64,000 nt of DNA, taken from positions 8,682,293 to 8,746,292 of the forward strand of contig NC_057749.1 of the NCBI RefSeq assembly GCF_004010195.1, in the 5' to 3' direction. Under the pieces are notes generated by a model. That model was not told the origin of the DNA, ran no database searches, and worked only from the letters and a program-made list of their open reading frames with translations. The DNA comes from Chiloscyllium plagiosum. Lineage: Eukaryota. Of the stretch, positions 5,398 through 63,096 are shown piece by piece (the stretch's first letter is position 1; each line of letters starts with the position of its first letter). A program made the translations under genes and the position numbers.

Positions 5398-5585
5398 TAG
5401 AACATAGAACACTACAGTGCAGTACAGGCCCTTCAGCCCTCAATGTTGCGCCAACCTGTGAAACCAATCCGAAGCCCATCTAACCTACATTATTCCATTT
5501 TCGTCCGTATGTCTAACGGATGACCATTTAAATGCCCGTAAAGTTGGTGAGTCTACTACTGTTGCAGGCAGTGCGTTCCGTGCCT
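5398..5585 (-). mobile_element. CR1 3' tail fragment
   Basis: tagaacatagaac...acaggcccttcagccc is the reverse complement of the copy A type tail. Confidence 0.7.
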
Positions 5586-5629
5586 CAGATTATGAAATCT
5601 GTTTCCAACTCTCTTTCGCTACAGTAGTT

Positions 5630-5982
5630 TTACTTTATTCATTCATGTGATGAGGGTGTCATTGGCTCTGTCAGCATTTATTGCCCATCCCCTAATTACC
5701 CAGAGGGCAGTTAAGAGTCAATCACATTGCTGTGGGTCTGGAGTCACATGTAGGCCAGACCAGGTAAGGATGGCAGTTTCCTTCCCTAAAGAACATCAGT
5801 GAACCAGATGGGTGATTCCAACAATCAGTTCATGATCATCATTAGATTCTTGGTTTCAGATTTGTTTTTAAATTGAATCCAAATTCCACCGTCCACTTTT
5901 GCAGGATTTGGACCCAGGCCCCCAGAACGTAACCTGAGTTTCTGGGTTAACAATCCTGGAATAATACCACCAGGCCATCACA
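5630..5982 (-). mobile_element. tRNA-derived SINE, second family (tail shared with a CR1/L2-like LINE)
   Basis: gcatttattgcccatccctaatt...ggtaaggatggcagtttccttccctaaag. Related copies near 15000-15340, 33840-34355, 39335-39860, 45625-45950 and 63740-64000. Confidence 0.7.
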
Positions 5983-6872
5983 TCTTCTCTGATGGACTTG
6001 GTTGCTTCAAGGTATAGAACATGAATTCAGCCAGCTCAGACTTGCACTATTTTGAATAACGGCAGGAGGGCCTTTCTCTAATATTCAGGCCTACCACTAA
6101 ATATTTTCTAAATCAATCTGTTCAGAGATGTTATTACTCATTTCTGGAGCAAGTGGGTCTTGAACTTGAGTCTCCTGGTTCAGAGGGAGGGATACTGAGC
6201 CTTCTACTCAGGAAAGAATATGCAAACTCAGGAAAGAATATGAAACATTCATCGTGAATCTGCAATTAGCTAACAATTATCCAACCTTCCCAAATGAGTG
6301 AAGAATTAAATTAACAATCAATTTAGGATTCTCAGTAGAGTTTGCAATGCAATTCACTTATACTTGCCAGTAGCTTCATATATTTATATGCAGGACCTGT
6401 CCTCTACAGGCATTGTATGTTTTTAATTAAACCAGAAAGCTGGGGACAATAGCTTCTTAGCATCTTCCCCACAACTCCTCAGCCAATTAGAGTTAACATC
6501 TAATCAAACAGCACCTTTCTGTACAATACTATATCCTTTTTGTTTTTGGATTGTGGACTTCAATTGAGAAAATGGGCGCATTCAACAGCATGTATCTTTT
6601 GTTTCAGAAGGACATATTTCCTACTCTGAAATTTTCTGGCATGGAGTTACAGCCTAGCAAGTTAACGATTGTCTCTTTCCCAAACTATATTTGCACAGAT
6701 CACACAGCTGGTTTTAGAGAGAAGCTTACCCACCTATCTCTGCAGGTAAGCACGCTGAGCATTACAAGCGACAATTAAAAACAGTAAATATCTTTCAGCA
6801 AAACACGTCTTTTTATTCACTTTGCAAAGTTGCATTAAACTCTCTACCAAAAGAGTAGAAGTCACATATAAT

Positions 6873-8361: not shown

Positions 8362-8922
8362 GAGTCATAGAGTCACACAGCATGGAAACAGACCCTTCGG
8401 TCCAACCCGTCCAAGTTGACCATAATCCCAAACTAAACTAGTCCCACCTGCCTGCTCCTGGCCTATATCACTTTAAACCTTCCTGTTCATGTATTTATCC
8501 AAAAGCTTTTTAAGTGCTGTAATTGTTGCCACATCCGCCACTTCCTCTGGAAGTTCATTCCACACACAAGCCACTCTCTGTGTAAAACATTTGTCCCTCA
8601 TTTGTCCCTCTCCTCTCACTTTAAAAATGTGCCCCGAGTCATGAAATCTCTCATCCTAGGGAAAAGACAACTACCGTTAACTCTATCTGTACCCTCATTA
8701 TTTTATAAACTTCTTTAAAATCACTTCTCAACTTCCTACCCTCTAGTGAAAAAAGCCCCAACCTCTCCCTATAACTCAAACTTTCCACACCTGTCAACAT
8801 CCTAGTCAGTGTCTTCTGAACCATCTCCAGGTTAATAATATTCTTCCTAAAACTGGACGATCAGAACTGGACACGTTACTCCAGTAAAAGACCTCACCAA
8901 CATCTTGCACAACATCAACATG
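8362..8922 (-). mobile_element. CR1 3' fragment
   Basis: gagtcatagagtc...gacccttcggtccaac tail plus decayed ORF2 end. Confidence 0.85.
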
Positions 8923-8964
8923 TTCAAATCTGGCTTTCTTTTGTGTTTAAATCTGTTACGAAAA

Positions 8965-9091
8965 GGAGAAAGTGAGGACTGCAGATGCTGGAGACCAGAA
9001 TTGAAAAGTGTGGTGCTGGAAAAACACAGCAGGCCAGTCAGCATCCAAGGAGCAGGAGAATCGACTTTTCAGGCATAAGCCCTTCTTCAGG
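8965..9091 (-). mobile_element. Penelope-derived short element with 15-bp TSD
   Basis: TSD aatctgttacgaaaa at 8950-8964 and 9092-9106. Same sequence as the arms of the GIY-YIG-bearing element at 27318. Confidence 0.85.
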
Positions 9092-10092
9092 AATCTGTTA
9101 CGAAAATCAAATCAAATCCATTTGAACTGCTTACAAACAAATGGATATCATTTCAACACTAAATATTTACAAGATGTTTTTCTGTCACCATGATATGCCA
9201 AAAGCTTAATCAACAATATGTGGTCAATATTATTCACTGAACAGTCTCCTTGACCTATAAGAGCACTTACAACAGGTGGTGAATAGTATTGTTATTGAAA
9301 TGTGTTGTTATTTTCACAATTGGTTGCCAGTGCATCCATTACTTTTCTCTATATTACAAGGTACGAGTGAGTGACCTGTAACCTTTCTCAAACTCAATTG
9401 GCAGTAGTCATAGAGTCATAGAGATGTACAGCAAGGAAACAGACCCTTCGGTCACATGACCTCCCAACTCCTGTACTCAATACTCTGACCAATAAAGGAA
9501 AGCATACCAAACGCCTTCTTCACTATCCTATCTACCTGCGACTCCACTTTCAAGGAGTTATGAACCTGCACTCCAAGGTCTCTTTGTTCAGCAACACTCC
9601 CTCGGACCTTACCATTTGTAGGAGTGTGTTGTAACAGTCTCATTTATACTACATTGCCACCTCTGGTGCACAGAGGAAGACTAGGAGCAGCTTGACGCAT
9701 TAATTTCAATAAACAGAGGGTTCAATTCTCTTAAAAGTCATAGATTTGAGAAACGTTCCAAATGGCAGATCACAAAGTTCCACAGAGAGTGAACACCAAG
9801 TATCATCTTTCAGACAATTAAAGTTTTCCATTCTGCTCATATTATTTTTAGTTAATTACTTTGAATTCTTTCTTGGGATGTGGTTAGGATCAGTGTTTAT
9901 TGCCTGGCCCTAATTGCCCCCTGGGAAGGTAGTGGGTAGGTGCCTTCTTGAACTGCTCTTATCCTTGGGATGTAGGAACACCCATGGTGCTGTTAGACAG
10001 GGAGTGTCATGAAGTGTTGTGGAAACGATATTGTTTGAATCTGTTGGTTTCCTATGTATTTTCATTGTATGTGGATTATCTCTGGCAAGTTC
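9061..10092 (+). repeat. Copy A of a local duplication (copy B at 12211-13954)
   Basis: 9061-9453 matches 12211-12603 with 1 mismatch seen; 9857-10005 matches 13369-13518; 10008-10092 matches 13870-13954. Confidence 0.95.
9405..9617 (-). mobile_element. CR1 3' fragment with internal deletion at 9453/9454
   Basis: Tail jumps directly to ORF2 sequence (LGVQVHNSLKVESQVDRIVKKAFGML). Copy B retains the intervening part. Confidence 0.85.
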
Positions 10093-10344
10093 AACATTTA
10101 TTGCCTTTGATCTGAGTTGCTTGTTCAATGATTTTGGAGAGTCATTCAGTGTCAATTGCAGTGAGTCTGTAGTCACATGAAGGTCAGACCAAGTAAAGAT
10201 GACACGTTTCCTTCCCTAATGGGCATTAACACACCACATTGGTTTCTACATCAATACCAAGGGGAAAGACCAGTAATAGTAGACCAGTAAAAGGCCAGTC
10301 AACGATGGGATCGATGAAACAGGTCTGGACACCAGTAACAATCC

Positions 10345-11172
10345 ACAGATTCCATTCTTACTACCTCTGAAAGACAGCCAACATCATCAAAGAACCCTCC
10401 CACCCCACTTATAATCTCTTCCAACCTTTTCCATCGAACAGAAGACACAAAAGCTTAAATACACATCCTACCAGATTCAAAAACAGCTTGTTCCCTTTAG
10501 TTGTTAGGCTTCTGAGTGGGACCCAAGAGTGTGATGCTGGAAAAGCACAATAGGTCAGGCAGCATCCAAGGAGCAAGAGAATCGATGTTTCAGTCCCCAC
10601 TTTCTCCTTCTGAATGGGATCCTCCAACCACACGGCACCAACGTCAATTTCACCGGTTTCCTCATTTCCTCTCCCCCAACCTCATCCCAGATCTAACCCT
10701 CAAACTTGGCACTGCCCTCTTCAACTGTCCTACCTGTCCATCTTCCTTCCCACCTATCCGCTCCATTCTCCTCTCTCACCTATCACCATCACCCCCCCAC
10801 CTTCATCTACCTATCGCCTTCCAAGCTACCTTCCCCTCAGCCCCACACACATCCCACATTCCTCATGAAGGGCTTCTGCCCGAAAAGTCAACCCTCCTGC
10901 TCCTCGGATGCTGCCTGACTTGCTGTGCTTTACCAGCGCAACCCTTTTCGACTCCGATCTCCAGCATGTGCCCTCACTTTCTCTTTCTAAATGGATCTGT
11001 CAAATTTGAAATCTAATGTTGATCACGCTCTCTGCGCACCTTCCTTGCAGCCATAACATTGTATTCTTTGCTCTGTTCGATTACCAAAATGCATTTGTAC
11101 GGTATAAGCTGCCTGCACTGCACGCAAAACAAAACATTTCACTGTATTTAGGTACATGTGACAATAATAAAT
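10345..11172 (+). mobile_element. Rex1/Babar-like LINE 3' end, interrupted by Penelope-derived sequence at about 10525-10985
   Basis: Both halves match 43095-43350; ends ttcactgtatttaggtacatgtgacaataataaa. Confidence 0.7.
10525..10985. mobile_element. Penelope-derived element, rearranged, with inverted arms
   Basis: Arms tgctggaaaagcac...ggcagcatcc and gatgctgcctgacttgctgtgc, with a C-rich spacer similar to 19170-19400. Confidence 0.75.
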
Positions 11173-11751
11173 TAAATCAAATTAATGATCTTTGTGCCAG
11201 TAATTTTGGTCTTGGAGGCAGTACTTGTTCTGGGCCAGTAGTACTGGTCCTGATGCCAGTCATATTGGTCAAGGTGCCAGTCCAATGTGTATCATGGTGC
11301 CAATCTATATGCAGTAGGTGTTAGATTCTGTGCTGCTCAACAGATTATCCGTGTTTTCCTGGGGTTTAACAAAGTAAATATGAAAGTATGATGAAGGGCT
11401 TTTGCCCGGAACGTCGATTTTCCAGCACCACTCTGATCTAAACTCTGGTTTCCAGCATCTGCAGTCCTCGCTTTTGCCCATAAAAGTATGTGTGCTACAG
11501 GGAATGCATGTGGCATAGTCAGTCATGGTAAGAGATCTCCTGGGATTTAGAGTGAAGATTTCTGAGCCTGCACTGAAAAGCCATGCTGCAGAATGACTGA
11601 TACTGTGGTCAGCTCCAGTACAAATCAAGATCTAAAACCGCCCTCCACCAATATACAACAACAGATCGCAATCTGGTTTCATACAGGTCTGTATTTGTTC
11701 CTCTGCAATCCAAGTTAGTTTCGTGGTCATCATTTCCGAGAACAGCTTTAT

Positions 11752-12116
11752 CTACAGTGTTGAAAGAGACCATTCAGCCCATCGAGTCTGCACTGATCCT
11801 TCAAAGTGCATCCCACTCAGACCTAGCCCCTGACCCAATCCTTGTCACCCCACATTTCCCATGGCTAACCCACCTTTCCTGCATGTCCCTGGAGACTATG
11901 GGAAGGTTAGCATGGCCAATCCACCTAACCTAGACATCCCTGAACACTATGGGCAATTTCCCATGGCCAACCCACCCTAAACCTGCACACCTTTGGACTG
12001 TGGGAGGAAACTGGAGCACCCGGAGGAAACCCACTCAGACCCGGGGAAAATGTGAAAACTCCACACAAACTGTGACCCAAGCCTGGATTCGAACCCAGGT
12101 CCATGCCACCATCAGG
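11752..12116 (-). mobile_element. V-SINE, 3' part; its head is displaced to 14044-14095 by the Penelope insertion
   Basis: V-domain and B-box end at 12116 and resume as ggcagcagtgctagccactg at 14058. Confidence 0.85.
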
Positions 12117-12554
12117 GAGAAAGTGAGGTCTGCAGATGCTGGAGATCAAAGTTGAAACTTTATTGCTGGAACAGCACAGCAGGTCAGGCAGCATCCAGGG
12201 AACAGGAGATTCGACTTTTCAGGCATAAGCCCTTCTTCAGGAATCTGTTACGAAAATCAAATCAAATCCATTTGAACTGCTGACAAACAAATGGATATCA
12301 TTTCAACACTAAATATTTACAAGATGTTTTTCTGTCACCATGATATGCCAAAAGCTTAATCAACAATATGTGGTCAATATTATTCACTGAACAGTCTCCT
12401 TGACCTATAAGAGCACTTACAACAGGTGGTGAATAGTATTGTTATTGAAATGTGTTGTTATTTTCACAATTGGTTGCCAGTGCATCCATTACTTTTCTCT
12501 ATATTACAAGGTACGAGTGAGTGACCTGTAACCTTTCTCAAACTCAATTGGCAG

Positions 12555-13034
12555 TAGTCATAGAGTCATAGAGATGTACAGCAAGGAAACAGACCCTTCG
12601 GTCCAACCCGTCCATGCCGACTAGATATCCCAACCCAATGTAGTCCCACCTGTCAGCACCCGACACATATCCCTCCAAACCCTTCCTATTCATATACCCA
12701 TCCAAATGCCTCTTAAATGTTGCAATTGTACCAGCCTCCACCACATCCTTTGGCAGCTCATTCCATACACATACCACCCTCTGTGTGAAAAAATTGTCCC
12801 ATAGGTCTCTTTTATATCTTTCCCCTCTCACCCTAAACCTATGCCCTCTAGTTCTGGACTCCCCGACCCCAGGGAAAAGACTTTGTCTATTTATCCTATC
12901 CATGCCCCTCATAATTTTGTAAACCTCTATAAGGTCACCCCTCAGCCTCAGCCTGTTCAGCCTCTCCCTGTAGCTCAGATCCTCCAACCCTGGCAACATC
13001 CTTGTAAATCTTTTCTGAACCCTTTCAAGTTTCA
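12555..13034 (-). mobile_element. CR1 3' fragment inside the duplicated segment (ORF 12544-12999)
   Basis: LRGDLIEVYKIMRGMDR...FFTQRVVCVWNELP. Confidence 0.9.
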
Positions 13035-13368
13035 NNNNNNNNNNNNNNNNNNNNNNNNNNNNNNNNNNNNNNNNNNNNNNNNNNNNNNNNNNNNNNNNNN
13101 NNNNNNNNNNNNNNNNNNNNNNNNNNNNNNNNNNNNNNNNNNNNNNNNNNNNNNNNNNNNNNNNNNNNNNNNNNNNNNNNNNNNNNNNNNNNNNNNNNNN
13201 NNNNNNNNNNNNNNNNNNNNNNNNNNNNNNNNNNNNNNNNNNNNNNNNNNNNNNNNNNNNNNNNNNNNNNNNNNNNNNNNNNNNNNNNNNNNNNNNNNNN
13301 NNNNNNNNNNNNNNNNNNNNNNNNNNNNNNNNNNNNNNNNNNNNNNNNNNNNNNNNNNNNNNNNNNNN
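13035..13368. other. Assembly gap
   Basis: Run of N. Confidence 1.
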
Positions 13369-13950
13369 TTACTTTGAATTCTTTCTTGGGATGTGGTTAG
13401 GATCAGTGTTTATTGCCTGGCCCTAATTGCCCCCTGGGAAGGTAGTGGGTAGGTGCCTTCTTGAACTGCTCTTATCCTTGGGATGTAGGAACACCCATGG
13501 TGCTGTTAGACAGGGAGTTTCAGGTCTTCATCCAGTGATATATTTCCAAATCAGGATAGTATTTGACTTAGAGGGGGACTTCCAAGCAATGGTGCTCCCA
13601 TCTGGTGCTCTCATTCTTCCAGTTGGGAGAGGTTGTGGGTTTGGAAGGGGCTGTCAGAGGTGCCTTGGTGAGTTAGTGCAGTGCATCCTGTAGATGGTAC
13701 ACAGTGCTGCTCCTGTGCATCAGCGATACAGGGAATGAATGTTTAAGGAGGTAGATGAGCTGCCATTGCTAGCACAATTTAAAGCAATTTGTCAGGCATA
13801 TAATAAATAGAGTGTATTGGAACATATGAATTGTTCTTAAGCATGATTTGAGGAAATAGGAGATACAAACATGAGGTGTTGTGGAAACGATATTGTTTGA
13901 ATCTGTTGGTTTCCTATGTATTTTCATTGTATGTGGATTATCTCTGGCAA

Positions 13951-13986
13951 GTTCCTGAAGAAGGGCCTGTGCCCGAAACGTCGAAT
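13951..13986 (+). ncRNA. Minimal type I hammerhead ribozyme motif in a Penelope terminal repeat
   Basis: gttc-CTGAAGA-a-GGGC-ctgt-GCCC-GAAA-cg-TC-gaat: conserved core, stem II, stem I, and palindromic ACGT at helix III. Confidence 0.75.
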
Positions 13987-15404
13987 CTCCTGTTCCCTGG
14001 ATGCTGCCTGACCTGCTGTGCTGTTCCAGCAATAAAGTTTCAACCATGGCACCATCAGGCAGCAGTGCTAGCCACTGTGGTGCCATACTGTCCCCTAACA
14101 AATTCACTTTGTTGAACTGAATTTAAAATCGATTGGCCGCCGTGGTGGGATTTGAACCTAGACTACCTGAAACATTAGTCTGAGCTTGTAGATTACAAAG
14201 TTAGGCAATATGAAACGTGCAAATTTTCAAACAAGCTGTCTATGAAAAATCCTGACATGGGAATTTATAATGAAATAAACATTGAAAGGTGAAGAAAATG
14301 TGAAGACAAGCTTGTAGGCAAAACATTTTTAACGATAAACAAGTAAACAGACAAGTAGACAAATAGATTGATTCATTGAAATGTAAGAGGTTTAATGGCC
14401 TCCTGCGAAAGAAATGTGTAACATTTTCACTGTGGGTGACAAGTCTATCTGACATTTTCTCTACTTTTAAATATATGCATTCTATCCTTGAAGGGGCTCA
14501 GGGAATCACACATAAAGAGCATTCAATGACATCAAAGTGTCCCGCAGAGCAATAGGAACCAGTGTATGGAAGTTTAATTTTATTTGGTCTGAAATGTCAT
14601 GACATTTGTAAGGATCAGGAGAGGTACAGACCATGTTCATATTTATAATGCACCCTGCTTCTGTCAGGACACCCATGTATGACATTTACTGCAATAACAT
14701 TTTCTTTATTCTCATCAACTGAAAATCAACTGAAGACATTTAATATCAAATGCATCGTTATGTGTGTGGATGGAACACGAGTTGAATTTGAATGAGTGTT
14801 TCAGAAACATGAGAAAATCTGAGCTTGAAAGCAGGAGTCGAGCGCAGATCATGTCAATGTACAGGACTTTCTTAAAGCCTTTTGTAAAATAGACTTGTGT
14901 TCCATGCATAGGTGACCTTATAGATCACAAAGCATCTCACTTCCAATTAATCGTACTTGTGAAATGCAGCAACCTTTTTAAAACAAAATTAATTTGTGGG
15001 AGTCACTGGCTGGCCAGCATTTATTGCCTGTCCCTTGAAGAGATTAAGTAGCTGTTGGTACAACTGAATGGCTTGCGAGGCCATTTCAGAGGGAAATTGA
15101 TCGTCAATCGTATAGTGTCCCATGGAGGCCAGACCAGGTGAAGATGGCATGAAGGGCATTAGTGAACCTGATTGGTTTTTCCCTCGACAATCGTTTCATG
15201 GTCATCAATAGATTCTTAATTCCAGATGTTTTATATTGAATTCAAATTCCACCAAGTGCCTTGGTGGGATTCAAACCAGGGTCCCCAGAACATTTGCTGA
15301 CTTACTCAATTAATACTCCAGTGATAATACCACTAAGCCATCTTACAGCTGTTACAACAACATTGGAAACTGAGCAGCTAATTTGAGCACAATGAGGGCC
15401 TGAC

Positions 15405-18807: not shown

Positions 18808-19530
18808 ACTGTTGAAAAGTGTGGCACTGGAAAAGCACAGCAGGTCAGGCAGCAGCTGAGGAGTAGGAGAAACAACGTTTCAGGCATAAGCCCTTCATCA
18901 GGAATGTTAGGGGGGCTAAGGGGGCTCAGAAATAAATAGGAGGGTGGGCATGTGGGTGGGAGTGAGGTAGGTGGGAGGTTATAAGTGGAAGGATGTGGAA
19001 GGATGATTCTGATAGGTTGGTACGTGGAAGGATGATTCTGATAGGTTGGTGGTGAGGGTGGAGTGGATAGGTGGGAAGGAAGATGAACAAATCAAGAGGG
19101 CGGTGCCGAGTTGGAGAGTTGGATCTGGGGTGAGGTGGTGAGAGGTGGATGAGGTAACCTAACCTTAAACCACCACCTCATTCCAGATCCAACCCTCCAA
19201 CTTGGCACCAACCTCTTGACCTGTCCTACCTGTTCATCTTCCTTCCCACCTATCTACTCCACCCTCCCCACCGACCTGTCACAATCACCCTTTCCCACAT
19301 GCATCTACCTATTGCCTTCTCAGCTAGCTCACCCACAACCCACTCCACCTCACCCGACTTCACCCCACCCTCCTATTTATCTGTCAGCCATCCCCCACAA
19401 TCCTGATGAAGGGCTTATGCCTGAAACTTCGGTTCTCCTGCTCCGCGGATTCTGTCTAACTTGCTGCACTTTTCCAGCACCACACACTGTTTGACTCTGA
19501 TCTCCAGCATCTGTAGTCCTCACTTTCTCT
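18808..19530. mobile_element. Penelope-derived palindromic element
   Basis: 18810-19150 and 19175-19490 are imperfect inverted copies, with decayed hammerhead cores in both arms. Confidence 0.8.
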
Positions 19531-26459: not shown

Positions 26460-27158
26460 AGTTGGTGAGGACATTTTGGAGTACTGTGCCTCGCTCTGGT
26501 CACCCTGTTATAGAAAGGATATTATTAAATTGAAGAGGGTTCAGAAAAGATTTACCAGGAAATTGCTGGAACTGGAAGGTTTGAGCTATAAGGAGAGGCT
26601 GGATAGGTTGGGAATTTTTTCACTGGAGCGTGGGAAGTTGAGGGGTCACCTTATAGAGGTTTATAAAATAATGAGGGGCATAGATAAGGTGAGTAGCAAT
26701 AGTCTTTTCCCCAGAGCAGGGGAATTCAAAACAAGGGGGAATATTTTAAGGTGAGAGAAAAAAGATTTAAAAAGGACCTGAGGGGCAACTTTTTCCATAG
26801 AAGGTAGTTCTTATGCAGAATGAACTGCTAGAGGAAGTGGTAGAGGCAGGTACAGTTATAGCATTCCTGATGAAGGGCTTATGCCTGAAACGTCGATTCT
26901 CCTGCTCCTCGGACGCTGCCTGACCTGCTGAGCTTTTCCAGCAACACACCCCCGACTCTGATCTCCAGCATCTGCAGTCCTCACTTTCTCCACGGTTACA
27001 ACATTTAAAAGACATTTGGGTAGATACATGAATAGGAAAGGGTAAGATGGATATGGGTCACACACAGTCAAGTGGGACTAGTTAAGTTTGAGAAACTGGT
27101 TGGCATGAACCTGTTGGACTGAGGAGTCTGTTTCCGTACTGAATGACTCTATGACCCT
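26460..27158 (+). mobile_element. CR1 3' fragment with a Penelope-derived insert at about 26862-26991
   Basis: EYCASLWSPCYRKDIIKLKRVQKRFTR. Insert flanked by acagttata and acggttaca. Confidence 0.9.
26863..26898 (+). ncRNA. Minimal hammerhead motif
   Basis: attc-CTGATGA-a-GGGC-ttat-GCCT-GAAA-cg-TC-gatt. Confidence 0.65.
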
Positions 27159-27317: not shown

Positions 27318-27849
27318 CGAGGAGAAAGTGAGGACTGCAGATGCTGGAGATCAGAGCTGAAAATGTGTTGCTGGAAAAGCGCAGCAGGTCAGGCAGCATC
27401 CAAGGAGCAGGAGAATCGACGTTTCGGGCATGAGCCCTTCTTCAGGAATGAGGAAAGTGTGTCCAGCAGGCTAAGATAAAAGGTAGGGAGGAGGGACTTG
27501 GGGGAGGGGCGTTGGAAATGCGATAGGTGGTGGAGGGGTCCAAGGACCTGCATGTCCTTGGTGGAGTGGGAGGGGGAGTTGAAGTGTTGAGCCATGGGGT
27601 GGTTGGGTTGGTTGGTCCGAGTGTCCCAGAGGTGTTCTCTGAAATGTTCCGCAAGTAGGCCGCTTGTCTCCCCAATATAGAGGAGGTACCCGATGTGGGC
27701 CTTCCCCAAGTCCCTCCTCCCTACCTTTTATCTTAGCCTGCTGGACACACTTTCCTCATTCCTAAAGAAGGGCTCATGCCCGAAACGTCGATTCTCCTGC
27801 TCCTTGGATGCTGCCTGACCTGCTGCGCTTTTCCAGCAACACATTTTCA
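27318..27849. mobile_element. Penelope-like element remnant: inverted arms around a GIY-YIG endonuclease fragment
   Basis: 15-bp TSD gctgccatccatgtt at 27303-27317 and 27850-27864. Near-perfect inverted arms of about 150 bp. Minus ORF reads LYIGETSGLLAEHFREHL...AQHFNSPSH. Confidence 0.92.
27414..27449 (-). ncRNA. Minimal hammerhead motif
   Basis: attc-CTGAAGA-a-GGGC-tcat-GCCC-GAAA-cg-TC-gatt on the minus strand. Confidence 0.7.
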
Positions 27850-58402: not shown

Positions 58403-58575
58403 CAAAAGATGGGGGGGAGGGGGGGGGGACTGCAGATGCTGGAGAGTCAGAGTTGATAGAGCGTGGAGCTGGAGAAAGCACAGCAGGTCAGGCAGCATCC
58501 GAGGAGCAAGAGAGTTGATGTTTCGCACAGAACCCTCCTTCCTGAAGAAGGGTTAAGCCCAAAATGTCGACTTTC
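58403..58575. mobile_element. Penelope-derived short element
   Basis: Same arm sequence as 8965; ctgagggagtgc on both sides. Confidence 0.75.
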
Positions 58576-58699
58576 CTGAGGGAGTGCTACAAATGGGTGT
58601 GGGCATCATATTTATTGCCTGTTGCTAACTGCCCTTTGAGAAGGTGGTGGTGAGCTACCTTCTTGAACCAGTTCAGTCATACCCACACTGCTGTTCTCT

Positions 58700-62552: not shown

Positions 62553-62931
62553 GTGAGCAACTTTCTGAACATTCTCGCCCAACTCCATACTCTGCTGTCC
62601 ATGAGAAGAAAACTTTCACCCCCTCCTCAAAGAAAAGCTTATGTTTCAGCTCTGGGAAATAAGTATTTTTTTTCCCTATTCCTGTTCTAGGACAGTTAAT
62701 CGTGCTGAGTTTCGAAAAGAAAGCCTTCTTTGGAAGAGTTCACTTGAAAGTTAATGTTCTTAGCATTTTCGAATGTAATGTGACTTGACCAGTGCAAAAC
62801 AATCCATTAATCCCTCAAGGAAGGGTGGTGCACTACAGGGACTCTTTTGTTGTCTGCCTTTCGTCTCCTGCAAACTTTAAGATGGGGAGACAATGGCCAA
62901 ATGTTATTATCTCAGGACTATTAATCCAAAG

Positions 62932-63096
62932 GAGAAAGTGAGGACTGCAGATGCTGGAGATCAGAGCTTAAAAATGTGTTGCTGGAAAAGCGCAGCAGGT
63001 CAGGCAGCATCAAAGGAGCAGGAGAATCGACGTTTCGGGTATAAGCCCTTCTTCCCTTCTTCAGGAAGAAGGGCTCCTGCCCGAAACGTTGATTCC
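62932..63096. mobile_element. Penelope-derived short element with 15-bp TSD
   Basis: actattaatccaaag at 62917-62931 and 63097-63111. Confidence 0.88.

Follow-up and report, generated by a model that had tools for sequence, protein, structure and literature searches.

A young retroelement insertion in Chiloscyllium plagiosum encloses about 1.7 kb of DNA copied from a neighbouring locus, and the copying entered that locus within an older, resident copy of the same element family, at a point resolved to five nucleotides. It lies in the window that we analysed, a 64,000-nt stretch of contig NC_057749.1 (assembly GCF_004010195.1, forward-strand positions 8,682,293 to 8,746,292), and coordinates below are window positions unless another locus is named. 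The anatomy of the insertion, its donor, both junctions and the recency of the capture are observed directly. An initial annotation had read the locus as a single insertion of the Penelope-like element (PLE) type, with inverted arms and a 16-bp target-site duplication splitting a SINE, and had read its interior as a near-identical copy of a resident PLE copy and its flank about 3 kb upstream. It had placed the entry inside the homologous PLE unit, where the left arm matches the right arm up to tcgac and then takes on the resident's private letters and flank, with a predicted ribozyme cut site in the same place and a 3-nt ttc overlap at the exit. All of this holds, the arm comparison site by site; the accompanying proposal that ribozyme self-cleavage set the junction is not supported. 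We call the young and very abundant PLE group that includes both arms the X subfamily, and number its unit from q1, which is 13952 and the complement of 12243.

The insert splits one SINE at 12116/12117. Nine SINE copies, chosen from about 20 SINE-like places in the window by the criterion that both flanks match, all run uninterrupted over the insertion point and continue into the sequence that follows 14059 (9/9 aligned). The left SINE part (11907-12116, strand unassigned, left edge approximate) aligns with other SINE copies in the window. The target-site duplication, likewise without an assigned strand, occupies 12101-12116 and 14044-14059, with the rest of the SINE coming next, and its two copies are identical at 15 of 16 letters. 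Its sole mismatch is C at 12106 against G at 14049, and G is the consensus of the nine SINE copies. This rate of 1 in 16 is at odds with that of the captured DNA, 1 in about 970, an unexplained disparity that we count against our best explanation.

The two arms, at 12151-12243 and 13952-14044, are 93 nt each and 96% complementary. The left arm, on the minus strand, additionally carries a 34-nt tail (12117-12150, q94-127), which is missing from the right arm; the right arm, on the plus strand, runs from q1 to q92/93 and thus begins where X arms most often have their 5' end. Over q29-93 there are 0 differences in 65 positions between the arms, and the left-arm stretch from q93 to q34 (12151-12210, minus strand) is an exact complement of the right arm. 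Differences between the arms are confined to q16, q18, q23 and q28, and at each of these the left arm has the letters of the resident copy. Compared with that resident copy, in turn, the left arm has 15 differing sites and two gaps, none of them below q34. X-specific sites therefore end at 12210 (q34) and resident-specific sites begin at 12216 (q28), so that the template switch lies within 12211-12215 (tcgac, q33-q29, minus strand), the sole stretch able to hold it. Inward of this switch interval, the end of the left arm (12216-12243, minus strand, q28-q1) has resident letters at q28, q23, q18 and q16 and then reads into the flank of the resident copy, so that donor-type letters extend 28-33 nt from q1.

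The combination of T at q23 and A at q28 with an X-type q34 is unique among 67 genome matches to a pattern in which older-type q16 and q18 are joined to an X-type q34; the reciprocal pattern has 10 matches. We considered the 67 as candidate chimeras and rejected them, as one substitution in a sister subfamily, which differs from the pattern solely at q34 and has 23,323 matches, explains them.

The resident copy is an older PLE unit of 127 nt (8965-9091, minus strand), 87.6% identical to the left arm and in the same orientation, with a perfect 15-nt duplication of its own on either side (8950-8964 and 9092-9106). Inspection of the alignment shows it to match X best of the four PLE copies within 3.2 kb, and it is where the copying entered the donor. 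The donor segment, which we refer to as copy 1 of the scaffold (9066-10092, plus strand), lies about 2-3 kb upstream of the insert, and the captured copy of the resident's flank (donor 9092-10089) occupies 12244-13951 on the plus strand. The interior aligns to 9066-9453, 9856-10005 and 10012-10092 with two mismatches in 619 letters. The unique part of the donor, 9092-9412, is present in exactly two copies in the 3.56-Gb assembly, and both lie within the window.

Two stretches of the insert, from 12604 onward and at 13519-13873, lack a counterpart in copy 1, which is without a transposable-element stretch after 9453 and without 355 nt between 10005 and 10012. A run of Ns at 13035-13368 falls inside the insert and is shorter than the at least 406 nt that it should hold; the repeat in 12563-13034 matched no Pfam family. 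The unplaced contig C47261 represents the undeleted donor allele: it is identical to the insert at 586 of 586 letters over 13369-13954 and then continues into the donor's own flank. Thus, the capture is very recent, and the 355-nt gap in copy 1, despite a divergence of 0.3%, is accounted for by copy 1 being one allele and C47261 the undeleted other. No allele contig covering the other gap of copy 1, after 9453, was found. The insert matches the C47261 allele, whereas copy 1 beside it in the scaffold is the deleted allele; copying in cis and in trans are both allowed, and we count this against our best explanation.

Two simpler histories of the duplicated DNA were rejected. A tandem duplication of 8965-12115 was suggested by the left arm and the resident unit lying 3,151 nt apart in register; it fails because the left arm, over its first 94 nt, equals the right arm and has 15 differences from the resident, and because the SINE duplication would stay unexplained. 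Derivation of copy 1 from copy 2, the captured DNA, is contradicted by both halves of the resident's 15-nt duplication being found solely in copy 1.

At the right junction, the trinucleotide TTC (13952-13954, plus strand, q1-3) is common to the end of the captured segment and the start of the right arm, at that arm's normal 5' end. The donor reads ...aagttc|aacatt in both copy 1 and C47261, and the insert reads ...aagttc|ctgaag.

The X subfamily is represented by 24,177 genome matches to its 25-nt signature, and its endonuclease by 118,044 first-look candidates. A search of the genome with the Pfam GIY-YIG family gave one short match among 150 scored, and the endonuclease was found through a long copy with the same units (locus L034, 4914-5249, minus strand), whose open reading frame scores 27.5 bits against a cut-off of 22.6 and has a translation that includes IIYCIRCSRSGLLYIGETGR. 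The X unit lies 189 nt from the endonuclease reading frame in all six loci fetched, and locus L095 is a complete copy in which the reading frame, the pLTR and the unit share one orientation inside a single duplication-flanked insertion. X elements are thus endonuclease-containing Penelope-like elements, the GIY-YIG domain being known from other copies and not from this insertion. In the long copies fetched, N runs adjoin the endonuclease part; they begin at an equal element position in L034 and L093, L095 has none, and they fit contig breaks at repeats.

The arms, the one-sided 34-nt tail and the duplication are ordinary PLE insertion architecture. The tail is on one arm solely in 28 of 29 sampled inverted X pairs, 20 of the 29 join with -3 to +5 nt, and target-site duplications, read by eye in four relatives, are 12-16 nt. 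Among 104 sampled X arms, 60 end at q1-8 (43 of the 104 start at q1-2) and 17 extend into the pLTR. A PLE protein cleaves and extends both strands, and its two internal start sites explain the tail (PMC11167929). A second capture, at locus L040, lies between two arms complete to q1 and comprises 137 nt from a repeat that is abundant in the genome (at least 1,552 first-look candidates). Homology-guided entry is not seen there and an abundant RNA source is equally possible, which we count against our best explanation of the present locus.

Our preferred explanation, to which we give an even chance of being correct, is DNA strand invasion of the resident copy, followed by polymerase chew-back, copying and TTC joining; the DNA template, the trimming step and the timing are what we infer in it. 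An X element would have integrated into the SINE with both nicked target strands priming reverse transcription, as published for PLEs, giving two inverted cDNA arms, one from an outer start that includes the 34-nt tail and one from an inner start, and the 16-nt duplication. In relatives, the arms usually abut head to head close to q1, and the joint has 0-5 nt of overlap or filler. At this locus, the left arm's free 3' end would have deviated before sealing, either during integration or at a later break in the centre of the palindromic insertion. It would have paired with the most similar nearby PLE copy, the resident unit, and lost about 28-33 nt by trimming, after which a DNA polymerase would have extended it over what was left of the resident unit and about 1.7 kb of flank, using the undeleted allele, as in C47261, as template. 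The extended end would then have left the template and joined the right arm through the TTC/GAA overlap, the product being a dispersed local duplication inside a retroelement insertion.

The 28-33-nt donor tract fits DNA strand invasion with chew-back at least as well as it fits a ribozyme-directed switch. The invading end would be expected near q1, and in genome-wide counts, which required two non-matching flank letters, 422 arms start at q1 against 14, 13, 15 and 18 at q30, q31, q33 and q34. In yeast, uptake of donor mismatches is strongly polar, extends up to about 40 nt inward of the invading 3' end and works through Pol delta proofreading even with the first 26 nt matching (PMC9477423). 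The donor is only about 2-3 kb off although the X pattern is found throughout the genome in the numbers given above, and locality has a precedent in 22 L1 'templated insertions' from nearby DNA, which that study explains as SDSA-like (bioRxiv 10.1101/2024.08.27.596794). The locus has the features of such an SDSA-like event: a nearby intact donor, a 5-nt switch interval in 127 nt of homology, a 3-nt overlap and donor letters near the invading end. Three further points count against strand invasion. The sequence does not discriminate between DNA and unspliced RNA as the template; the chew-back data, from yeast break-induced replication rather than from vertebrates or cDNA ends, would apply here by analogy; and the presence of a predicted cleavage bond in the switch interval would be chance, at about 5% (6 of 126 bonds).

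That bond belongs to a hammerhead-like motif at 13955-13982 on the plus strand, comprising CUGAAGA, a 4-bp stem II with a bulged A, GAA, a palindromic ACGU and C. Cleavage is predicted at q31|q32, which is 13982|13983 in the right arm and 12212|12213, inside the switch interval, in the left. The right arm and the family consensus both have every letter of the core CUGANGA, of stem II, of GAA and of a short palindromic helix III, together with a cleavable UH; helix I has at most 4 bp, and its fourth pair requires a letter absent from the right arm. To the eye, the motif resembles published PLE mini-hammerheads, described as having a bulged base before stem II and an ACGU palindrome (PMC4209133). 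Rfam hammerhead models matched neither the whole window at the gathering score nor, at E<=10, positions 8900-14100 or a consensus-like copy at 26840-27000.

The initial annotation proposed that X RNA self-cleaved at q31|q32 and that reverse transcriptase reached this 5' end and jumped to a minus-strand read-through transcript of the resident, the acceptor possibly being the 3' end left where that transcript had itself been cleaved, with about 1.7 kb of RNA copied. The coincidence of bond and switch interval speaks for it, as do the resident's orientation, which puts the hammerhead strand and the copied flank in one transcript, and the published PLE layout of the motif, with bulged base and palindromic ACGU (PMC4209133, PMC11167929). 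The cut would also lie about 25 nt past the position of an ATG in older copies, the sites q8, q16 and q18, at which the subfamilies differ, correspond to core position N7 and loop 2 and leave the core and stem letters untouched, and template jumps and read-through transcripts have already been proposed for PLE captures (PMC3846280). Yet clustering of junctions at the cleavage site, which the annotation had offered as a test, is not supported by the sampled arms: of the 104, one has its end at q31-33 and four have theirs at q28-36, which is near the number expected by chance (about 3.75 in q28-36 given 25 arms truncated at q9-68). Genome-wide, 99 arms start at q32, and most of these are recurring palindromic joints between arms, ends of partner arms or internal deletions; plain truncations make up about 12-13 of 44 starts shown with context, and the counts reveal no excess of them at the predicted cut. 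Both in the sample and in the genome counts, X arms usually end at or near q1 and not at q32. Moreover, the single PLE tested in vitro inserted without need for ribozyme cleavage, its main substrate was uncleaved RNA, and zero RNA-seq reads ended at the cut (PMC11167929), and a homology-guided RNA jump should prefer the thousands of transcripts of greater similarity from elsewhere in the genome to a copy 3 kb away, barring a local nascent transcript. We regard self-cleavage as the cause of the junction as unlikely; the locus alone does not show a role for the ribozyme. A variant, in which X RNA and a nascent host transcript with the resident hammerhead were both cut at q31|q32 and reverse transcriptase jumped between the fragment ends, or the reverse reaction ligated them, is distinctly unlikely in our judgement. 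The cuts in it may occur inside the presumed dimer of PLE mini-hammerheads, and if it were true, each old PLE copy in a transcribed gene would be a docking site for retro-duplicating unspliced host sequence.

In LINE-1, template switching by reverse transcriptase that produces chimeric retrocopies is established, and copy choice between RNAs may have operated here with no part for a ribozyme: reverse transcriptase would have moved from X RNA to a local nascent transcript of the resident at an arbitrary homologous position and continued into the flank. Such copy choice predicts identical anatomy, and abundant RNA would easily explain the L040 capture from a very abundant repeat; but the locality of the donor requires a special assumption, and a tract ending within 40 nt of q1 is left without a reason, and we consider it unlikely. 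An assembly artefact, in which a single real copy was joined chimerically or mis-scaffolded around the N run, is suggested by that run, which divides the insert and is too short for the sequence that it should hold, and by PLE structures being known to trouble short-read assemblies (PMC8557442). Against this, both junctions lie in uninterrupted sequence and are common to the alternative paths over 5 and 3 letters alone, probably too few for a repeat-driven mis-join. The halves of the insert carry the two halves of one SINE, a matching duplication and the normal asymmetry of tail and no tail. The same 586 letters, additionally, occur in two contexts, next to a PLE arm in the insert and next to the donor's flank in C47261 and copy 1, which largely answers the concern about scaffolding raised in the initial annotation and makes an artefact very improbable.

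That PLE repeats can enclose captured host DNA has been published before: in Adineta vaga, such sequence lies between the terminal repeats of Penelope elements, with target-site duplications (Arkhipova, Yushenova, Rodriguez 2013, PMC3846280). In that paper, as here, PLE repeats that are partly inverted frame unrelated host sequence along with a target-site duplication; its authors proposed read-through transcripts and template jumps. Relative to that account, the present locus differs in that the donor is identified, 2-3 kb away and near-identical; entry was by homology through a resident PLE copy, resolved to a 5-nt interval; and the arms are only about 95-127 nt, in a vertebrate host with a huge PLE load. 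Canonical PLE anatomy is an inverted 5'-truncated copy with a one-sided tail of 30-40 bp, two RT start sites and extension of both strands (Craig et al. 2021, PMC8557442; Frangieh et al. 2024, PMC11167929), and the insertion shares with it the inverted arms, the 34-nt tail on one arm, a duplication in the 12-16-nt range and a hammerhead-like motif just inside the arm. Unlike canonical PLEs, it has 1.7 kb of non-element DNA between arms that abut in 20 of 29 sampled relatives.

In the LINE-1 templated insertions, growing cDNA leaves its RNA and pairs with nearby DNA, and the copy ends up inside the new insertion (bioRxiv 10.1101/2024.08.27.596794). Our locus is alike in this and unlike in its element class and enzyme, in its entry through a diverged resident copy of the same family and in length, the LINE-1 templates reported being mostly <250 bp. 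With yeast Pol delta uptake (Haber laboratory, PMC9477423) it shares a tolerance of about 108-127 nt of diverged homology and donor letters within about 40 nt of the 3' end; the yeast data, however, concern break-induced replication at a nuclease cut, and the polymerase here is inferred. L1/U6 template-switch chimeras have an abundant RNA as acceptor, joined at the 5' end of the element RNA; the acceptor here is a two-copy local sequence, and the usual 5' end of X RNA is q1, not q32. Earlier cell-culture work by Gilbert, Symer and colleagues reportedly addressed integration-coupled chimeras of LINE-1 formed through an SDSA-like step.

PLEs are, to our knowledge, the least understood class of retroelements. 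The locus offers a base-resolved example of a PLE integration intermediate diverted onto an older nearby copy, with a fresh 1.7-kb dispersed duplication as its outcome; such an intermediate amounts to a double-strand break bearing two cDNA tails of like sense. Given the donor allele, both junctions and many normal relatives, the DNA and RNA models differ in countable predictions, namely the distribution of switch points, the distance of donors and the expression of donors. If events of this kind are common, local segmental duplication in vertebrate genomes rich in PLEs would use old PLE copies as its landing pads.

We placed the window at 8682293-8746292 of contig C40 in the 3.56-Gb genome assembly (G000), and found that a SINE within it is broken at 12116/12117 by an insert occupying 12117-14043. 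The insert is flanked by a 16-nt target-site duplication (12101-12116 and 14044-14059) that is identical at 15 letters, the single mismatch being 12106 C against 14049 G. Nine other copies, chosen from about 20 SINE-like places in the window because they match on both flanks, all run uninterrupted across the insertion point and all carry G at the odd position, so the split SINE of the initial annotation stands. One mismatch in 16 compares with about one difference in 970 between the captured DNA and the donor alleles; error-prone fill-in and a target SNP are possible sources. The right flank (14060-14420) is single-copy in a genome search, and the assembly thus holds no empty-site contig. Three 51-nt units stand in tandem at 11854-11976, in the 5' part of the SINE broken by the insert.

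At its two ends the insert carries the same repeat unit in opposite orientations (93 nt, 96% complementary), the matching Penelope arms first described. We number the unit q1-q127 in right-arm sense, q1 being 13952 and the complement of 12243. The two arms show 0/65 differences over q29-93 and differ only at q16, q18, q23 and q28, where the left arm has the letters of an older resident unit at 8965-9091 (minus strand). Against that unit the left arm shows 15 differing letters and 2 gaps, none of them before q34. Past q1 it runs on into the older unit's flank, including the right-hand copy of the perfect 15-nt duplication that bounds this unit (8950-8964 and 9092-9106), which marks the 9-kb locus as the source and the insert as the recipient of the copying. 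Being right-arm-like over q29-93 and older-unit-like from q28 inward, the left arm points to a template change within 12211-12215, the tcgac at which a switch to private resident letters had been proposed.

The interior (12244-13951) aligns to 9066-9453, 9856-10005 and 10012-10092, where all but 2 of 619 letters agree, and the unique part 9092-9412 occurs just twice in the genome, both times inside the window, in agreement with the reported capture from about 3 kb upstream. At the right junction the donor reads aagttc followed by aacatt and the insert aagttc followed by ctgaag, so that the annotated 3-nt ttc microhomology overlaps q1-3. A stretch of 355 nt (13519-13873) is present in the insert and missing from the donor segment as scaffolded; its later deletion there looked implausible at 0.3% divergence. 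A genome search found these 355 nt at 100% identity on an unplaced 1,540-nt contig, C47261. Over its first 1,200 letters (L096:1-1200), this contig aligns to 9583-10009, continues through the 355 nt, and then follows 10008-10434, beyond the duplication boundary and into the donor's own flank. Outside the 355 nt it differs from 9583-10434 by 4 mismatches and 1 gap, and its whole overlap with the insert (13369-13954) is identical at 586/586 letters. On this alignment, C47261 is the undeleted donor allele, and the insert is a very recent copy of it. The assembled individual appears heterozygous for the 355-nt indel.

The N run at 13035-13368 is too short for its expected content of at least 406 nt and is probably a sized gap joining two contigs, each contributing one arm, one junction and one SINE half. 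A one-copy scaffolding artefact, named initially as the outcome that would overturn the reading, might be sought at such a gap; however, C47261 gives the same letters in a second right-hand context, which speaks against it. We consider an artefact very improbable, and the observation almost certainly genuine.

The subfamily supplying both arms, here called X, is abundant: its 25-letter arm signature (q69-93, at most 1 mismatch) has 12,031 and 12,146 genome matches, and the reversed control has 0. The first 100 listed places, all at 0.14-18.07 Mb of contig C1, gave with their surroundings 104 arms and 29 inverted (-,+) pairs. In 28 of these one arm reaches q127, the tail lying at q94-127, and its partner q93-107; the sole exception is a long element. 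The arms meet at a joint of -3 to +5 nt in 20 pairs (one call being unreliable), with 12-27 nt of filler in four, with 212-217 nt of further element (pLTR) in three, with 137 nt of foreign DNA in one and with the long element in one. This is the published anatomy of Penelope-like elements (PLEs), described in parts of PMC8557442 as an inverted 5'-truncated copy with a 30-40-bp tail at a single end, and attributed in PMC11167929 to reverse transcription from two internal start sites, with both target strands cleaved and extended. Older PLE insertions of the same anatomy lie at 18812-19529, 27321-27849, 58427-58578 and 62931-63095, with target-site duplications and with inverted arms, 153 nt long (98.7% alike) or some 320 nt, of which one stops at q92-93; two have head-to-head joints lacking a spacer. 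A sister subfamily is of similar size (23,323 matches to a 35-place pattern; X, 24,177 signature matches); its pattern departs from X at positions q16, q18 and q34, which lie at the variable position of the hammerhead core, in loop 2 and in helix I.

An ORF in a long X element (L034) matches the GIY-YIG endonuclease family of Pfam (27.5 bits, cut-off 22.6), and the X unit lies 189 nt from this ORF in 6/6 loci found with its peptide. N runs interrupt the fetched long copies; the uninterrupted copy L095 has, inside a target-site duplication of about 15 nt, an inverted arm, the endonuclease ORF, the pLTR and unit q1-93. Four of the five structural features of the class, those other than the reverse transcriptase, support the Penelope-type label. 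Two open frames matching Pfam RVT_1 (395-2363, N run 2436-2811; E 4.5e-24 and 3.1e-27) are probably a LINE unrelated to the PLE insert, and a frame at 42554-43087 matches ALKBH8_N (E 3.6e-08). A composite form is abundant (L090-L095; L095:1168-2245), with an inverted arm and about 190 nt of pLTR followed by an endonuclease-only ORF (160-166 aa), pLTR and unit. Its pLTR/endonuclease joint is the same point in 6/6 fetched loci, about 10 letters reading alike in both parts, and its endonuclease peptide has 118,044 first-look candidates in the genome, which suggests a non-autonomous derivative copied whole. The long copy in L034 (G000:C1:16162600-16167100) is hosted by a satellite-like array of ~16-20-nt units (ctgttacagagaccc...; L034:2100-2296 and 5573-6600). 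Simple repeats are reportedly favoured PLE targets.

How the neighbouring DNA entered is less certain. Initially, reverse transcription was held to have run to the 5' end of a hammerhead-cleaved RNA and then jumped by homology to the resident copy or its read-through transcript. The unit runs CUGA(A/U)GA, then a bulged A, stem II of 4 bp, GAA, ACGU and C, a layout agreeing with PLE mini-hammerheads as described in parts of PMC4209133 and PMC11167929. Its predicted cut is q31/q32 (13982/13983 in the right arm, 12212/12213 in the left); in the left arm this falls in the switch window, a coincidence with a chance of about 5% (6 of 126 bonds) in a single event. The Rfam hammerhead models gave no match at gathering score, and searches at E ≤ 10 of 5.2 kb and of a consensus-like copy were likewise empty. 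Cleaved RNA as the usual template would give arms starting at q32, which were not seen: 43 of the 104 arms begin at q1-2, 17 at q3-8, 14 at q9-27, four at q28-36 (q28, q28, q30, q33) and seven at q37-68, while 17 continue into the pLTR and two are unclear. For the 25 arms truncated in q9-68, chance predicts 3.75 in q28-36 against the 4 observed. Genome-wide starts, counted where each of the two preceding letters is neither the expected letter nor its transition, number 422 at q1, 14 at q30, 13 at q31 (10 resembling a 1-nt deletion variant), 99 at q32, 15 at q33 and 18 at q34. Among 44 of the 99 q32 matches viewed with ten extra upstream letters, most are palindromic arm-to-arm joints, partner-arm ends sharing GAA with q32-34, or internal deletions; about 12-13 are plain truncations, not above neighbouring positions. 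Plain arm ends thus show no excess at the predicted cut. In vitro, the one PLE assayed did not need cleavage and used mainly uncleaved RNA as substrate (PMC11167929). A ribozyme-defined end is possible for this one event, with no support from the family, and we regard such a jump as improbable; the homologous entry into the resident unit survives. One palindromic joint appears in identical form some 15 times in the 44 contexts viewed: the antisense arm runs to q36 and the sense arm follows from q33 (stem CAGGAG/CTCCTG, 3-nt loop). It is either a snap-back priming hot spot or an amplified structure. X arm ends are discrete: q1, by far the commonest, lies 3 nt ahead of the hammerhead-like core (13952, 9093, 26864) and may mark a transcription start, processing or a reverse transcription stop, and others recur about 190 nt upstream of q1 and where the endonuclease part begins.

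Repair templated by DNA has, in our judgement, about an even chance. From the normal product, abutting arms, it follows that each cDNA arm usually extends to q1 before end joining. The intermediate in effect amounts to a double-strand break whose two 3' tails have like sense, either able to seek homology. A left tail ending at q1 would invade the resident unit, which is in direct orientation and, on alignments inspected by eye, the closest to X of four PLE copies within 3.2 kb; the final 15 letters would pair perfectly. Donor letters would then displace those of the tail only close to its 3' end; the donor-type tract is 28-33 nt, and uptake in yeast, according to parts of PMC9477423, is strongly polar, reaches about 40 nt, needs Pol delta proofreading and takes place even with the first 26 nt matching. 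Synthesis would continue about 1.7 kb into the resident flank, and the released strand would join the q1 end of the right arm through the TTC/GAA overlap. A later break at the centre of an existing palindromic insertion could give the same outcome. LINE-1 local templated insertions resemble this local templating and are explained likewise in parts of bioRxiv 10.1101/2024.08.27.596794. The strongest argument for a DNA, or at least tethered, template is donor locality, since the genome offers tens of thousands of copies elsewhere that are as similar or more so. Copy choice on RNA, which we think unlikely, is also compatible with the sequence if the template was unspliced, and parts of PMC3846280 propose read-through and template jumps for cases in which PLE repeats and target-site duplications frame captured host DNA. 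Abundant RNA could account for the capture in one of the 29 pairs (L040:1417-1810; G000:C1:17444216-17444610). There, two X arms, both reaching q1 and one of them tailed, flank 137 nt that belong to a very abundant repeat (no fewer than 1,552 first-look candidates; best full-length matches 93-95% identical), and the target-site duplication is 14 nt long. A copy of this repeat 730 nt downstream matches its first 90 nt at 97.8%, and homology-guided entry was not seen in this capture. Some other process takes up what probability remains.

In all but its interior, this is an ordinary PLE insertion; what lies between the arms was newly copied from neighbouring DNA, with entry through an old PLE unit. 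Events of this general kind are already known for PLEs and LINE-1. What is new here is that donor, allele and junctions are resolved, together with the homology-guided local entry.
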